A stretch of 64,000 bases of DNA from Candidatus Dojkabacteria bacterium (lineage in GTDB: Bacteria > Patescibacteriota > Dojkabacteria > SC72 > JAHDCA01), in NCBI GenBank assembly GCA_030583845.1, contig CP129478.1, forward strand, positions 279,175 to 343,174, written 5' to 3'. How positions within the stretch are numbered: position 1 is the stretch's first letter; every line of letters begins with the position of its first letter. Of the stretch, positions 1,361 to 59,072 are shown piece after piece. The notes below the pieces were generated by a model. The model did no database searches, was not told the DNA's origin, and saw only the letters and a program-made list of their open reading frames with translations. Both the position numbers and the translations under genes were made by a program.

Positions 1361-2248
1361 CTACTGATTCAAAACCTTAGCGGTTATTGAGAAACTTACC
1401 TTTGCCACTTCTCTTAGCTTATCCTCACCATACATGAGCACGAAGCGTCGCGCCGCCTCAATGACATTGCTTGAGCCCTTGGGGAATTCAAACTCATACT
1501 CCTTCTCCATCACCTCCCACTCGGATAGAAAGACCGCCCTCGCTATCATCGACGCCGCAGCTACGGCGATATCACTCTCACCTTTATGGAACTGCACAAT
1601 TTTGACATTCTCACTTCTAAGGAATTTTTTCCCTGCAGTCTCGAGTCGATCTTTTCTAGTTGAGAACTGGTCAATTACGACGGTATCGCACTCTATACCC
1701 TCGTCTGCGAGTTCTAGCATTAGCTGATTTACGTTTTGCATATGCACATCTGAAAGCATGATATTAATATTTCCTGTGCTATTAATGTTTTCTGCATACT
1801 CGAGAGGCTTCACAACTTTCGAGCTATACTTGCAAAGCTCGGCTAGCTTTGGGAAATCATTCAAAATCCGTTCATCTGAAAGCTTCTTTGAATCCGATAC
1901 CGTGATCTCTTTCAATGCCTGAATATTCTCTGCGGGAATATATGCCGCAGCTACAACCAATGGGCCAAAGTAGTCTCCCTTCCCTACCTCGTCTGCTCCT
2001 ATATGGGGAGTATATGGGCTATTTTCGGATATAGCACCATCATTTAAGCGATTAGCAAACTGCGTGACATCCTTACCTTGTAGCAGGATTTTGCCGGAGC
2101 TATAGATGATTGCAGTCACTCCCATGCCTCGATATCGGTGAGTTTCATACTCGCTCTTGGTTGTCTCTGGCTGCAGGCCCTGGTCTTGGATAATTTGGGC
2201 ATACTTATTGATTTCAGTTTTATTGATCTCTTTGGTGTAGCTTGTCAT
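1361..2248 (-). CDS. rnhC: Ribonuclease HIII-like
   Basis: Catalytic motif GADEVGKGDYFGPLVV typical of RNase HIII, with an N-terminal extra domain. Length 295 aa. Confidence 0.65.
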   Translation of the reverse strand: MTSYTKEINKTEINKYAQIIQDQGLQPETTKSEYETHRYRGMGVTAIIYSSGKILLQGKDVTQFANRLNDGAISENSPYTPHIGADEVGKGDYFGPLVVAAAYIPAENIQALKEITVSDSKKLSDERILNDFPKLAELCKYSSKVVKPLEYAENINSTGNINIMLSDVHMQNVNQLMLELADEGIECDTVVIDQFSTRKDRLETAGKKFLRSENVKIVQFHKGESDIAVAAASMIARAVFLSEWEVMEKEYEFEFPKGSSNVIEAARRFVLMYGEDKLREVAKVSFSITAKVLNQ

Positions 2249-34814: not shown

Positions 34815-34891
34815 GCTGGATTAGCTCAGTTGGCCAGAGCGCATCCATGGTAAGGATGAGGTCCCGGGTTCGACCCCCGGATCCAGCTCCA
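34815..34891 (+). tRNA. tRNA-Thr (anticodon GGT), CCA encoded
   Basis: GCTGGATTAGCTCAGTTGGCCAGAGCGCATCCATGGTAAGGATGAGGTCCCGGGTTCGACCCCCGGATCCAGCTCCA. The 3' end lies 4 bp from the stop of the giant minus-strand gene. Confidence 0.8.
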
Positions 34892-41155: not shown

Positions 41156-41229
41156 GGGCCCATAGTTTCAATCGGTTAAAACAGCGGTCTCCAAAACCGT
41201 AGTTCTCCGTTCGAGTCGGAGTGGGCCTG
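41156..41229 (+). tRNA. tRNA-Trp (anticodon CCA), discriminator G, no encoded CCA
   Basis: GGGCCCATAGTTTCAATCGGTTAAAACAGCGGTCTCCAAAACCGTAGTTCTCCGTTCGAGTCGGAGTGGGCCTG, preceded by a 17-bp-stem hairpin. Classic position upstream of secE-nusG. Confidence 0.8.
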
Positions 41230-48226: not shown

Positions 48227-48557
48227 AAAGCGAAATTTGCATTGCCTGCCTGCTTAGAGCTATAATACCAGCAGAAAGAGATCTTTGAAGCAAACACAGA
48301 GAGTCGACCCAAGGCATGAATTGCCGGATTTGAGAGGTTGGCGAGCTTACAAATTGGCACTCTTTTCGCTTGAGAAAGCAGCGTGATAAAAGAATATCGA
48401 GAGATTATCGCAGCTTATATGGCGCGGTAATAATGCGGGTGGAACCGCGGTAGTACATTTTTGAAATATACCGTCCCGCTAACTTATAGTCCATAGCCTC
48501 GGCGACGGAGTATAAGTTAGCGGGACGGTTTTTATTTATATATAATCATTTAAGAAT
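48227..48557 (+). promoter_or_regulatory. glyQS T-box riboswitch leader: promoter TTGCAT-18-TATAAT (48227-48256), AGAGA and GGC specifier region, T-box sequence AATGCGGGTGGAACCGCGG (48432-48450), terminator hairpin (48470-48529) plus U-tract (48530-48540)
   Basis: Seen directly: 17/19 match to the AAUUAGGGUGGNACCGCGG consensus, with UGGA (N=A, matching the tRNA-Gly discriminator U). Antiterminator pairing GCGGG/CCCGC and CGGUA/UACCG around a UGGAACC bulge. The terminator is a REP-family hairpin followed by TTTTTATTTAT immediately before the glyQS start. Confidence 0.7.
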
Positions 48558-48575
48558 ATGGAAAAAGAGAAAAGC

Positions 48576-49973
48576 ATGACAATAGAGACGCTTGCGGCAT
48601 TTGCAAAAAGGCGCGGCTTCGTATTTCAATCATCAGAGATCTATGGTGGATTTGCCGCTGTATACGACTACGCACATTACGGTGCGCTTATGCGCGAGAA
48701 TATCAAGCAGGCGTGGGTCAAAGAGATGATCCGCCGAGATGATGTGAAGCTTCTCGATTCAGCAGTATTTATGCACCCAACCACCTGGAAGGCCAGCGGA
48801 CATGTTGATTCATTCGCCGATCCTGAGATCGATTGCAAAAGCTGTAAGAACCGATTTAAAGCCGACCACCTCTTGGAGCCACTTGGATATACCGATGTCG
48901 ACCGCATGGAGATTTCAGAAGCAAACAAGATCGTAGAGCAGGTCAAAGCAGAAGGGAAATTGAAGTGTCCAGTATGCGGAGGCAAAGATCTCACAGATAT
49001 TAAGCGATTTGACCTGCTGGTTAAATCAAACTTAGGCTCCCCTACTTCAGAGCTTTCAGAAGAGAATGTTGTCTACCTACGAGGTGAGACCTGCCAAGGT
49101 ATCTATCTCAACTATAAGAATTACCTGCAGAATATGCGGGTGAAGGTTCCGTTTGGTATAGCTCAGGTTGGTAAAGCTTTCCGAAACGAGGTGGTCGCAC
49201 GACAGTACACTTTCCGTATGCGCGAATTTGAACAGTGCGAGATGCAATATTTCGTTCACCCAACTGACGAGCAGCCGAAATATGACTATTGGAAAAAGGA
49301 GCGAATGAGGTGGTGGAAAGAGGAGTTGGGCGTGCCTGCAGAGATGCTTAGATTTAAAGATCACGAAAAGCTTGCCCACTACGCGAAAGCAGCATGTGAT
49401 GTAGAGTACGACTTCAATGTACTTGGGAAATTTGCCGAGGTTGAGGGTATCCATCAGCGAGGTGATTGGGATCTCTCACAGCATCAGAAATTCTCAGGCG
49501 AGAATCTCGAGTATTTCGACCAGGATAAGAACGAAAAGTATATCCCACACATAGTAGAGACTTCGGGTGGACTCGACCGAATGTTCCTTGCCGTACTCGA
49601 TAGCGGCTATACAGAAGAGACGCTTGAAGATGGTAGCGAAAGAGTTGTGTTGAAGGTGAAGCCATCATTGGCACCAATAAAGGTGGCAGTATTCCCACTT
49701 ATCAAGAAGCCCGAGCTCACAAAATTGGCTAAAGATATCTATCAATACTTGCTTTCACAGCACATGGTCGAATATGATGAAACAGGATCAATCGGTAAGC
49801 GATATAGAAGACAGGATGAGATCGGTACACCTTTCTGCATCACTGTCGACTTCGAATCACTCGAGGACAACATGGTGACATTGCGCAACAGAGATACGCT
49901 AGAGCAGGAAAGGATCAAGATCGACGATATGCCACAGATTATTAACTCAAGGTTGTATCCGGAGAAGGCTTAA
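48576..49973 (+). CDS. glyQS: Glycyl-tRNA synthetase (single-chain alpha2 type)
   Basis: Class II motifs (…FRNE…, …GGLDR…) and N-terminal …FVFQSSEIYGG…. An alternative ATG lies at 48558. Confidence 0.9.
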   Translation: MTIETLAAFAKRRGFVFQSSEIYGGFAAVYDYAHYGALMRENIKQAWVKEMIRRDDVKLLDSAVFMHPTTWKASGHVDSFADPEIDCKSCKNRFKADHLLEPLGYTDVDRMEISEANKIVEQVKAEGKLKCPVCGGKDLTDIKRFDLLVKSNLGSPTSELSEENVVYLRGETCQGIYLNYKNYLQNMRVKVPFGIAQVGKAFRNEVVARQYTFRMREFEQCEMQYFVHPTDEQPKYDYWKKERMRWWKEELGVPAEMLRFKDHEKLAHYAKAACDVEYDFNVLGKFAEVEGIHQRGDWDLSQHQKFSGENLEYFDQDKNEKYIPHIVETSGGLDRMFLAVLDSGYTEETLEDGSERVVLKVKPSLAPIKVAVFPLIKKPELTKLAKDIYQYLLSQHMVEYDETGSIGKRYRRQDEIGTPFCITVDFESLEDNMVTLRNRDTLEQERIKIDDMPQIINSRLYPEKA

Positions 49974-56041: not shown

Positions 56042-57025
56042 TTAGATCTTCATTGCATCCATCACTCGTCCTATAACATCATCTGCAACCTTATTTGCAC
56101 TTTTCTCACCCTCCTCTAATAGCTCAACTATATACTTGTCTCCAAGCTTATCTACCTCAGCCCTCTTCTCTCGTACAGGCTGAAGCATCTTCTCAATTGC
56201 TGCGTATAGTTTCTCCTTCACCTCTACATCGCCTACAGTTCCCTTAACATATCTTTCTTTCAGATCGTTAATTTCATCTTTATCTTCATTAAAGTAGTCA
56301 TGATAGATGAACACAGGATTACCCTCTACGCGACCAGGGTCGGTAGCACGGATTCGGTTAGGATCTGTATACATGCCCATTACTTTCTTACGCACATCTT
56401 CTGGCGAGTCACTAAAGAAGATTCCACCCGTCGATTTCCCTGCCTTCCCTTGTCCATCCAGTCCTACCAGTATCTCCCCTATCAAACCTGCAGGAACTTT
56501 CAAAGCCTTTCCATAAGTCTTATTAAATTTGTTCGCCAAGTCGCGTGTGATCTCAATATGCGCCTCCTGATCCTTACCAACTGGGACTACGTCGGAATCT
56601 ACAATCAATATATCGGATGCCATCAGAACTGGATATCCCAAAAGACCATATGTTAGGTCATGCCCACCCTGCAGCTTCTCCTTCAGTGCAGGCTGCCTCT
56701 CGAGCTCAACCATTGGAGTCAGCATAGAGAGAATTAGATGCAATCTAAATGTCTGAGCCAACCTAGACTGCCTGTAGAACGTAACTTTCTCCGGGTCCAT
56801 TCCGAGGCTGATCTGCGTCTTTATCAAATCGATCGCGTTTTGATGAATTATATCGGCCTGATTATAATGAGTAGTCAAGGTATGATAGTCTGCAGAGAAG
56901 ATAAAGGTATCGTACTCATCTTGCCTTGCGATTCTGTTTTTGAGCGTGCCAATATAAGCACCGATTACATATGAATTTCCAGATGCCCTATCCCCTGTCA
57001 GTAGCCTTTTCTTTTTTTCCATCAC
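56042..57025 (-). CDS. trpS: Tryptophanyl-tRNA synthetase
   Basis: Class I HIGH-region …SGNSYVIGAY… and KMSKS-variant …GQGKAGKSTGG…, size 327 aa. Confidence 0.9.
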   Translation of the reverse strand: MMEKKKRLLTGDRASGNSYVIGAYIGTLKNRIARQDEYDTFIFSADYHTLTTHYNQADIIHQNAIDLIKTQISLGMDPEKVTFYRQSRLAQTFRLHLILSMLTPMVELERQPALKEKLQGGHDLTYGLLGYPVLMASDILIVDSDVVPVGKDQEAHIEITRDLANKFNKTYGKALKVPAGLIGEILVGLDGQGKAGKSTGGIFFSDSPEDVRKKVMGMYTDPNRIRATDPGRVEGNPVFIYHDYFNEDKDEINDLKERYVKGTVGDVEVKEKLYAAIEKMLQPVREKRAEVDKLGDKYIVELLEEGEKSANKVADDVIGRVMDAMKI

Positions 57026-57413
57026 TTTTCTTCATTAAATTTAATCTATCTTACTTGGGGACCTCGTTTACAGCCTAAGCCATAAAACAAAAATCCCCGA
57101 ACAAGAATGAACCAAAATTCACTCTTGCCCGGGGACGTTACTCACGTGTTGCCACCCCTTCTTTGCGAGTACATCGCTGCACCCACCTTGTCGACTGACT
57201 TCCGGTGTAGAAACTAACTTCCACCACTTATCTCATCAGTCCGAATCTATTACGTGATTCGCTACGTCGCACATACTCAATCATGCCTTCGTGTGACAGA
57301 CCTTTCTGATTGCTGCTCCCTGGCCCATTCTCCAGATCACGGCATTTCATACCTTCGCAAAATCATTTACAAGGGTATGATTACATTATACTACAGCCTT
57401 ATTGATTTGTTAA
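57026..57413 (-). promoter_or_regulatory. trpS T-box riboswitch leader: promoter TTAACA-17-TATAAT (plus coordinates 57385-57413), candidate T-box GGGGUGGCAACACG with UGGC bulge (57146-57166), terminator hairpin (57096-57135) plus U-tract (57085-57095)
   Basis: Minus-strand RNA: …AAGAAGGGGUGGCAACACGUGAGUAACGUCCCCGGGCAAGAGUGAAUUUUGGUUCAUUCUUGUUCGGGGAUUUUUGUUUU…. Antiterminator architecture A1 GGGG/CCCC, 7-nt bulge UGGCAAC (UGGC complementary to the G-CCA end of the tRNA-Trp found in this window), A2 ACGU(GAGUA)ACGU. A strong terminator lies about 30 nt upstream of the start. Several UGG triplets are candidate specifiers. Confidence 0.55.
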
Positions 57414-57437: not shown

Positions 57438-59072
57438 ATGAAAAAGCAATTCAGAACGAAAATCCTTCCGGTCATTACAAGCATATTCGGAGCGCTAATA
57501 ATTATATCGGGTACTCTTATTGTCTTCCTCTACGCTAACGGCTATAGATTTAATAGAGAGGAAGGGACACTAGACAAGACTGGTGTCATAAGTATAAGTG
57601 CAAGCCCATATAGAAGTGAGATCTATCTCGATGGCAAACCAATCGGTAGGACCCCGAAGACGGTCTCCTCCCTTAAAGCAGGTGTCCACACAGTGAGGAT
57701 TACCAATGATGGGTTCCATGATTGGTACAAAGAGGTTGATGTAAAAGTTGAAAAGTCTACACCTATCAGTGCCATTCTTTTGAGGTCTGAGCTCAAAGCA
57801 GAAGAGGTATTTAAGGTCGACGATGAGATAGTAAATGTGAGCCATGACCAGCTGTACAACTATGTCTTCATCACCACCAAGAAAGAGCTGACCACCTCAC
57901 CCACACCAACAGCTCCATTGGCTCAAGATCAGGCACTCTATAAAATATGGCGGTACAACATAAATCCTAATTTTTGGGAGCTAGCCCAGAACCCAGTGCT
58001 CATCTACGAAGAGGAGATAGCAGCAGTAGAGGAATTTGAATTGCTCGTATCACCAAACGGCCAGAAGGCGCTCCTGACGCTAACCACACCTGTCGCCGGC
58101 CCAGAAGAGCAAACCAAAGCCTACTCACTGCTCAACACTGGCAGCAAGAATGATACCCCGACCCCATTAAATCTCGAGGCCTTTACGGAGGGCTACGAGA
58201 TCGAATGGGCAATGGACAGTCAGTTCCTTATGCTTCAATCTGACACCGAGCTGGTCACCCTTAACACCAGAGACGAGACCAAGTACATCATCCGCAGAGA
58301 CAATCTACCAGCCGCATGGAGCACCAACACCGACGGCCATCTATACCTAATTGATGAGGTTAGCGAGGCAGCTGAGGACGAGCAGGTTCAGCAATCGAAA
58401 TTTCAGATCGCAAGATCAAGCATGGAAGGAAATGACAGCACTGTCTTTATCGATGATATTTTCACTCTGCCTGAGTCGGAGATATTGGTAGAGCAGTTCC
58501 AGGATCCTGTCACCAAGAGTGAGCTACAGACACCATTTGAGGTTAGTGAAGTTGGAGATAAATTGGCAGGAGATATTACTGGGATCTTAGAGATGGAGGA
58601 TTTCCCTGGCTTTGTTATATTCACCACTCTTTCGACCTATTTCTATGACCCTGAGGATAACAGGTACACGCTCATGCTACCGGAAGCTGCTACAGTTGTC
58701 GGCTCAGACAGTGGCAACACCGAGCTAGGACTTTATGGGACTACCGTTACAGCAGTCTATACATATGATAAGGAGGAAGCGGACCATACGGTAGAGATCG
58801 GCACACTGGTGCTAACTCACCATTCTGAGGGATCAAAGAATGAGCAATTCAGATGGGTCCCTTCGACAGATTATCTTTCAACATTGGTCGACAGTAGCCT
58901 CTATGTGATCGATGATGAGGGTGATAATTATCTAAAGATTCTTGATGATAAGGCAGCTCTAGATTTCTACATGATAAACAGATCAGGCGAATACTTATAT
59001 ACATTCGCTCCTGAATCTGACAGCGAGGGCGAATCAGGCAGCTACAGCCTAGTACGTTACGAGCTAAGATAA
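57438..59072 (+). CDS. PEGA domain-containing membrane protein
   Basis: N-terminal TM ILPVITSIFGALIIISGTLIVFLY, then a PEGA-like segment …SASPYRSEIYLDGKPIGRTPKTV…GVHTVRITNDGFHDWYKEVDVKV. The rest is unassigned. Confidence 0.55.
   Translation: MKKQFRTKILPVITSIFGALIIISGTLIVFLYANGYRFNREEGTLDKTGVISISASPYRSEIYLDGKPIGRTPKTVSSLKAGVHTVRITNDGFHDWYKEVDVKVEKSTPISAILLRSELKAEEVFKVDDEIVNVSHDQLYNYVFITTKKELTTSPTPTAPLAQDQALYKIWRYNINPNFWELAQNPVLIYEEEIAAVEEFELLVSPNGQKALLTLTTPVAGPEEQTKAYSLLNTGSKNDTPTPLNLEAFTEGYEIEWAMDSQFLMLQSDTELVTLNTRDETKYIIRRDNLPAAWSTNTDGHLYLIDEVSEAAEDEQVQQSKFQIARSSMEGNDSTVFIDDIFTLPESEILVEQFQDPVTKSELQTPFEVSEVGDKLAGDITGILEMEDFPGFVIFTTLSTYFYDPEDNRYTLMLPEAATVVGSDSGNTELGLYGTTVTAVYTYDKEEADHTVEIGTLVLTHHSEGSKNEQFRWVPSTDYLSTLVDSSLYVIDDEGDNYLKILDDKAALDFYMINRSGEYLYTFAPESDSEGESGSYSLVRYELR

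Follow-up and report, generated by a model that had tools for sequence, protein, structure and literature searches.

The window analysed in this work is a stretch of 64,000 nucleotides in which trpS, the gene encoding tryptophan--tRNA ligase, is located on the minus strand. The TrpS product was 100% identical to the TrpS annotated in a metagenome-assembled genome of Candidatus Dojkabacteria (WS6, CPR/Patescibacteria). The leader of this gene and all its elements are read on the minus strand, and their positions are collected in Table 1. A preliminary description of the region had placed a good promoter about 350 nt from trpS and a candidate T-box leader between both; the promoter was recovered as a sigma-70-type element at a distance of ~360 nt from the gene, and transcription would start from it near position 57378. 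The tRNA-Trp gene of the window, whose product would be the ligand, presents a 7-bp acceptor stem followed by G, the CCA end not being encoded. Its anticodon CCA matches the codon UGG, and G73 plus the CCA end matches UGGC, in agreement with the complementarity previously proposed between UGGC and the G-CCA end of this tRNA. Divergent from trpS, a gene for a PEGA-domain protein occupies positions 57438..59072 of the plus strand.

Table 1. Proposed elements of the trpS leader and associated features (positions of the window).
Feature	Position	Strand	Remarks
trpS (tryptophan--tRNA ligase), gene under regulation	56042..57025	minus	ATG 57022, in-frame GTG 57025; PF00579
Sigma-70-type promoter TTAACA-17-TATAAT	57385..57413	minus	11/12 consensus positions; same promoter sequence in L013, there directly before trpS
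5' hairpin, 34 nt, between transcription start and Stem I	57347..57380	minus	Predicted by MFE and centroid folds; window-specific
Stem I, 31 nt	57314..57344	minus	Rfam alignment; unguided RNAalifold; two compensatory pairs; same 31-nt length in 3/3 members
Specifier UGG (Trp codon), then purine G57324	57325..57327	minus	Invariant in three members; complementary to tRNA-Trp anticodon CCA
Stem II with S-turn motifs	57267..57313	minus	GAA 57306-57304 opposite AGUA 57277-57274; variable upper hairpin
Stem IIA/B pseudoknot, F-box-like ACGUAAUA	57242..57266	minus	IIA CGU (57266-57264)/ACG (57255-57253); IIB GAAUC (57260-57256)/GAUUC (57247-57243)
Linker hairpin GACUGAU/GUCAGUC with hairpin insert	57193..57241	minus	Folds and RNAalifold; helix nearly invariant, so that covariation gives no test
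Stem III, 9 bp, loop GCGA, then AAAGAA	57165..57186	minus	5/6 counted pairs compensatory; precedes T-box sequence
Antiterminator, loop GAGUA	57131..57158	minus	A1 GGGG (57158-57155)/CCCC (57134-57131); A2 ACGU/ACGU; -8.8 kcal/mol folded alone
Intrinsic terminator	57083..57136	minus	20-pair stem (G-U included) 57136..57093, then UUUUUGUUUU
tRNA-Trp, presumed ligand	41156..41229	plus	Anticodon CCA; discriminator G73 is the last base

A total of 108 trpS loci were collected; a single-protein contig scan yielded 12 loci, with one Dojkabacteria-like relative among them, and an alignment-based metagenome scan yielded 80, mostly distant. A homologous leader was found in two further Dojkabacteria lineages, L015 (the same as L016 and L017; GCA_020429305.1) and L104. 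TrpS proteins of the three leader-bearing lineages shared ~70% identity pairwise and their leaders ~64%. The 5' hairpin that precedes Stem I in the window was absent in L015 and L104, where the end of the -10 box is separated from Stem I by 11 nt. Transcription in these two lineages should start 4-5 nt before Stem I, which leaves no room for a longer Stem I.

Stem I consists of a K-turn base and a short upper helix. The base comprises a 3-bp C-stem (UGC/GCA), a 3-nt bulge (CGU, 57341-57339) and the tandem sheared G-A/A-G pairs G57338-A57317 and A57337-G57318, and thus displays the GA motif. Above it, a 5-bp helix (UCUGG/CCAGG) carries the apical loop AGAAUGGG (57331-57324), which contains 8 nt, or 6 if A-G closes, and is invariant in the three members. 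Compensatory changes appeared in the C-stem (G-C to A-U) and in the Stem I helix (U-A to G-C). The spacing from the start of Stem I was also the same in all members, with the codon at nucleotides 18-20 and the GAA of Stem II at nucleotides 39-41. A specifier loop presenting UGG, for which a search had been suggested, was therefore found in this loop, with a purine next to the codon and in the same context as in nine canonical trpS T-boxes. The distal part of Stem I characteristic of Class I is missing: the specifier lies in the terminal loop, the distal positions of the Rfam model are deleted in the three members, and the search of the trpS leader for an AG bulge or for motifs of the distal loop gave none.

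The second domain is formed by Stem II and the IIA/B pseudoknot. In the three members, Stem II starts with two closing pairs (G-C and C-G), followed by a purine-rich internal loop, two pairs and the GAA/AGUA S-turn; above the latter, a mismatch leads to two to four pairs capped by a variable hairpin (26-47 nt). The pairs flanking GAA/AGUA were conserved in all members, and the Rfam model aligned the S-turn in L015 and L104. In the window, the string that follows AGUA contains a U at the place where the ileS structures carry a purine. The lower helix is irregular and partly supported, and an alternative 6-bp helix (CAAUCA/UGAUUG) can be drawn in the window, which is non-conserved and puts GAA/AGUA out of register; Stem II with its S-turn is consequently the weakest part of the structural model. 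The IIA/B pseudoknot is, as judged from covariation, well supported: four of its eight pairs were compensatory across the three members and none was broken, with a change from U-A to G-C in IIA and the variants GAAUC/GAUUC, GAGCA/UGCUU and GAGAU/AUCUC in IIB. Its layout matches the canonical arrangement CGG..CCGUUA..IIB.

Between the pseudoknot and Stem III, the linker forms a hairpin that bears an insert in the window, and that in L104 is a simple GGCUGAU-GUUU-GUCAGUC hairpin devoid of it. The linker sequence GUCAGU (57199..57194, minus strand), invariant in the three members, can pair either with CUGAU (57241..57235) or with the UGGC bulge and its neighbouring Gs (57157..57151). The pairing with the bulge was the one chosen by RNAalifold and by the single-sequence fold, and covariation cannot test it because the sequence is invariant. 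The linker GUCA resembles the GCCA end of the tRNA and may mask the UGGC bulge until the tRNA arrives.

The antiterminator agreed in sequence exactly with what had been described, namely A1 GGGG/CCCC, the bulge UGGCAAC and A2 ACGU/ACGU. The T-box sequence AGGGGUGGCAACACG gives a 7-nt antiterminator bulge (57154-57148) of the UGGN type, in which UGGC (57154-57151) is complementary to G73-C-C-A of tRNA-Trp. A1 and A2 each presented one compensatory pair in L104 (G-C to A-U and A-U to G-C, respectively). The segment AAGGGGUGGCAACACGUGAGUAACGUCCCC, which lies directly 5' of the terminator hairpin and overlaps it, folds alone as antiterminator. The terminator and U-tract announced in the preliminary description were present as well, whereas the 17-bp stem and the position ~30 nt before the start codon given there did not hold: the stem comprises 20 pairs including G-U, and 61 nt separate the end of the U-tract from the start codon. 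This hairpin (57136..57093) was the only terminator-like site of the region. Once the downstream arm was included in the fold, the terminator prevailed with -34.5 kcal/mol (z = -5.9), as against -8.8 kcal/mol for the antiterminator. As the 3' strands of A2 and A1 are taken up in the 5' arm of the terminator (57136-57117), the two helices are mutually exclusive.

In the three members the hairpin is followed by a U-tract (UUUUUGUUUU or UUUUUUGUUUUUU), which ends 61, 20, and 77 nt before the start codon. Hairpin and U-tract at this place indicate a switch acting on transcription termination rather than on ribosome access. The translational platform typical of Class III, based on Shine-Dalgarno sequestration, was found in none of the three members. 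It is hence highly unlikely that, as in most known short-Stem-I T-boxes, the hairpin works as a sequestrator acting on translation, the ribosome-binding region being outside it.

Search of the whole window at the Rfam gathering threshold detected tRNAs only and no T-box. With permissive filters, RF00230 matched positions 57349..57128 of the minus strand with 28.9 bits (E = 1.5e-4 in a 601-nt search), as compared to a gathering score of 93; the Rfam scan recommended for the candidate thus returned a match, although far below the cutoff. The low score is explained by the alignment, in which only 4 nt stood for 72 distal Stem I positions of the model in the window, L015 and L104, 68 of the 72 being deleted. 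Posterior probabilities were high at the antiterminator and at the K-turn base of Stem I, and what remained of the upper Stem I was CUGG-AGAAUGGG-CCAG. L015 and L104 scored 23.6 and 37.9 bits, respectively, and the matches in the three members covered the K-turn, the S-turn motifs, IIA, Stem III and the T-box/antiterminator. The proposal of a T-box leader before trpS was therefore supported by the RF00230 match, the K-turn, the UGG loop, the UGGC bulge and the recurrence of the element with compensatory changes in two independent assemblies. According to the preliminary description, a T-box would be refuted if there were neither a covariance match nor a GA motif or AG bulge in Stem I; match and GA motif were both present and the AG bulge was absent. 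Beyond what had been proposed, the analysis revealed a drastically shortened Stem I, a Class III-like decoding domain and a CPR bacterium as the host.

Folding of the leader was more stable than that of shuffled sequences (z = -5.2). Single-sequence MFE folds of the decoding domain did not differ significantly from shuffles (z from about -0.4 to -1.0) and varied among members, and no weight was given to them. For counting pairs, we aligned the three leaders by modules. In this hand-made alignment, which treats variable loops as spacers and leans toward the proposed structure, 99.1% of 111 cells were paired (one broken) and 13 of the 37 pairs changed on both sides. None of 500 shuffles was as good, and sliding the register by 1-3 columns lowered the paired fraction to 33-43%. 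RNAalifold applied unguided to a plain MAFFT alignment recovered both Stem I helices and Stem III. From Stem II to the linker the plain alignment cannot be trusted, and it was not used for a covariance model; a long-range helix proposed from it by RNAalifold (columns 91-97 with 303-309) was rejected, since it contained broken cells in each sequence. The comparison is limited to three members, for which covariation statistics are weak, and the covariation observed, which fits selection on structure, is suggestive rather than conclusive.

The order PEGA-domain gene, trpS, mreB was kept across the Dojkabacteria loci, which made it simple to tell loci with the leader from loci without it. In a neighbour-joining tree of TrpS, the three leader-bearing loci fell inside one Dojkabacteria subclade. 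The same subclade contains L013 and L014, the sister and closest relative of the window (TrpS 86% identical), in which the promoter sequence is the same (2455..2503 in L013) and exactly the ~350 nt of the leader are missing. Their -10 box, TATAGT, is found 8 nt before the ATG, and the trpS mRNA would accordingly be nearly leaderless. The leader was also missing in L107, again of this subclade. No T-box was found upstream of trpS in L013/14, L098-L103 or L105-L108, where the upstream regions examined spanned 62-95 nt (about 560 nt in L107), and the leader was absent from every other Dojkabacteria-like trpS locus examined (eleven or more). Absence from most trpS loci of Dojkabacteria indicates that the leader is dispensable; it could have been lost repeatedly, be mobile within the clade, or be on its way out.

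Four classes of T-boxes have been distinguished (PMC10482949). Class I carries a long Stem I with a double T-loop plus Stem II; Class II is glycine-specific and devoid of Stem II; Class III, exemplified by N. farcinica ileS, combines a short Stem I without double T-loop, a Specifier in the apical loop and a required Stem II; and Class IV has an intermediate Stem I (PMC10482949). The first two classes are said to "generally regulate transcription termination" and the last two to "mostly regulate translation initiation", a "mostly" that leaves room for terminator-type examples with short Stem I (PMC10482949).

The decoding part of the trpS leader shares with Class III, the ileS leaders with "ultrashort Stem I" of Nocardia farcinica, Mycobacterium tuberculosis and M. 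smegmatis, a short Stem I without interdigitated double T-loop, an apical-loop Specifier followed by a purine, a K-turn that leads to a likely Stem II bearing S-turn motifs and to a IIA/B pseudoknot, and a canonical discriminator (PMC10482949, PMC7583486). The spacing is similar too: in N. farcinica ileS the codon occupies nucleotides 16-18 and the S-turn GAA nucleotides 37-39 (PMC7583486), so that the 18-20/39-41 found here represent a 2-nt shift. In contrast to these leaders, which are actinobacterial, located on ileS and specific for Ile, the element of the window is Trp-specific, located on trpS and hosted by a member of the Patescibacteria (Dojkabacteria); it ends in an intrinsic terminator with U-tract instead of a Shine-Dalgarno sequestrator, its apical loop has 8 nt (6 if A-G closes) as compared to the 5-6 nt described (PMC10482949), and the context of the loop matches that of Class I trpS T-boxes.

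Distant trpS genes (46-52% TrpS identity) were often preceded by canonical T-boxes scoring 69-113 bits and with full Stem I, in which the 5' AGUA, the upper helices, the CAGAGAG bulge and the GGUGnAA distal loop were present. The 3' side of the specifier loop in all of them reads GAA-UGG-(G/A)-CC...GGAGC, and in the window A-GAA-UGG-G-CCAG-GGAGC. The likeness to Class I trpS elements (RF00230) extends to the gene, this specifier context (GAA-UGG-R-CC...GGAGC), the K-turn, the GAA/AGUA of Stem II, the pseudoknot and its F-box-like stretch, Stem III and the UGGC bulge, as well as the terminator/antiterminator switch; the difference resides in distal Stem I, where the window has no upper helices, AG bulge or distal loop and its specifier loop is without the 5' AGUA, and in the score, which was 24-38 bits for the Dojkabacteria members. 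The Dojkabacteria loop thus equals a canonical Trp specifier loop minus everything distal to it, which points to deletion of distal Stem I in a canonical (Class I) Trp T-box as the most likely origin of the short Stem I. The likeness in loop context suggests that this origin was independent of Class III.

Taken together, these features indicate that the trpS leader is quite probably a functional Trp-specific T-box riboswitch controlling transcription read-through. Judged from its sequence, the element joins a decoding module of Class III-like (actinobacterial ileS) type to a transcriptional platform, with Trp specificity and in a CPR bacterium. Its mode of action would follow the established T-box mechanism; what is new is that a decoding domain devoid of the elbow contact is coupled to transcription termination, a pairing regarded in reviews as exceptional, and that it occurs in a phylum where it was not expected. 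The transcript starting from the promoter at 57413..57385 would fold into the 31-nt Stem I, whose loop AGAAUGGG would display UGG for pairing with the anticodon of uncharged tRNA-Trp. As Stem I lacks an elbow-docking platform, the codon-anticodon helix would be clamped sideways by the S-turn of Stem II and positioned by the K-turn and the pseudoknot, as happens in the actinobacterial ileS leaders of Class III. The free 3' end of the tRNA would then pair with UGGC and stack on the discriminator, thus stabilising the antiterminator and allowing RNA polymerase to enter trpS; charged tRNA could not pair with UGGC and the terminator would form. The presence of an intact terminator before an essential single-copy aminoacyl-tRNA synthetase gene implies that a working route of antitermination exists.

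Genomes of the CPR are generally reduced. In line with this tendency, the leader might be a decaying relic, that is, a once-canonical Trp T-box deprived of distal Stem I, unable to bind tRNA productively and disappearing from Dojkabacteria, trpS being expressed through leakiness of the terminator. The main argument for such a decay is the patchy distribution, with the clean deletion of the leader behind the same promoter in L013 and its absence from the remaining Dojkabacteria loci. Nevertheless, the loop has remained invariant, the spacing identical and 13 pairs compensatory, with a single broken cell in 111, across lineages whose TrpS proteins are only ~70% identical, and an invariant loop together with compensatory pairs in three diverged lineages is the signature of purifying selection on structure. 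Moreover, a dead antiterminator in front of terminators as strong as that of the window (-34.5 kcal/mol) would choke an essential gene. We consequently regard decay as unlikely, and a working riboswitch as the better reading of the conservation observed.

If the leader were a plain Class I T-box with a long Stem I that had escaped recognition, the latter built for instance from upstream sequence or from downstream hairpins, the window would offer material for it: Stem I is preceded there by an additional 34-nt hairpin, and the linker holds additional hairpins. However, the expected transcription start of L015 and L104 leaves no upstream sequence for it and the linker insertion is absent in L104, so that no part of the RNA would be consistently available for a long Stem I; the trpS leader showed neither an AG bulge nor distal-loop motifs, and the corresponding positions of the Rfam model are deleted in the three members. 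This possibility is very improbable. The same holds for a leader with attenuator or terminator that acts independently of tRNA and resembles a T-box by coincidence: it would account for an Rfam score under the family threshold, but it would require that UGG in canonical context, UGGC fitting G73, K-turn, IIA/B pseudoknot, Stem III and location before trpS coincide in three lineages.

A functional Trp-specific riboswitch being thus the preferred reading, it is possible, and we propose it tentatively, that the T-box of Dojkabacteria senses tRNA co-transcriptionally without an elbow-docking platform and that its origin, a loss of distal Stem I from a canonical Trp T-box, was separate from that of the actinobacterial ileS class. 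Reviews hold that, without the elbow contact, a transcriptional T-box would not capture its tRNA fast enough (PMC7583486); a conserved elbow-less T-box before a strong terminator would be a natural counter-example to this kinetic argument. If the proposal is true, the double T-loop would not be obligatory for kinetically controlled (terminator-type) T-boxes, and the "anticodon groove" between Stem I and Stem II would be enough. T-boxes are usually presented as a Gram-positive device, and the elbow-less short Stem I as a trait of translational actinobacterial ileS leaders (PMC7583486, PMC10482949); the short-Stem-I model of TBDB was searched in Actinobacteria only (PMC7778990). We found no report of a T-box riboswitch in Patescibacteria or the candidate phyla radiation in the open-access full-text literature. 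A Trp-responsive transcriptional switch of ~260 nt with a 31-nt Stem I is compact and could also serve as an engineering part.

A second T-box leader was observed in the same window (48239..48540, plus strand), upstream of a GlyRS gene (48558..49973). It was not detected by the gathering scan and reached 30.1 bits (cutoff 93) with the Rfam T-box model at 48276..48481. Its bulge UGGA fits the U73-CCA end of tRNA-Gly, Stem III and the antiterminator were well aligned, a terminator with U-tract is located at ~48470..48535 and a promoter (TTGCAT-17-TATAAT) at ~48239..48267. The Stem I region of ~100 nt includes CAGAGAG and GGC-A (48356-48359), although the Rfam alignment of this Stem I was too poor for interpretation, and there is no Stem II; this leader thus looks Class II-like. 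Both leaders of the window share the genome, the terminator-type platform and a sub-threshold Rfam score, whereas they differ in that the glyS leader keeps its ~100-nt Stem I region with CAGAGAG, lacks the Stem II domain and carries UGGA in the bulge. Since both T-boxes scored ~30 bits against a cutoff of 93, regulation by T-boxes in CPR/Patescibacteria is probably invisible to standard Rfam annotation and under-counted.

Two minor observations were made on other sequences. ARAGORN identified a tRNA-Thr (GGU) at 34815..34891 of the window (plus strand) that was missing from the Rfam gathering scan (6 tRNAs vs. 5). In L015, imperfect tandem repeats of ~30 nt (GGGCTATGTGGACATATAC / GGAGGAGCTATGTGGACAT...) occupy positions 1890..2040, upstream of the trpS promoter and inside an intergenic region of 835 nt.
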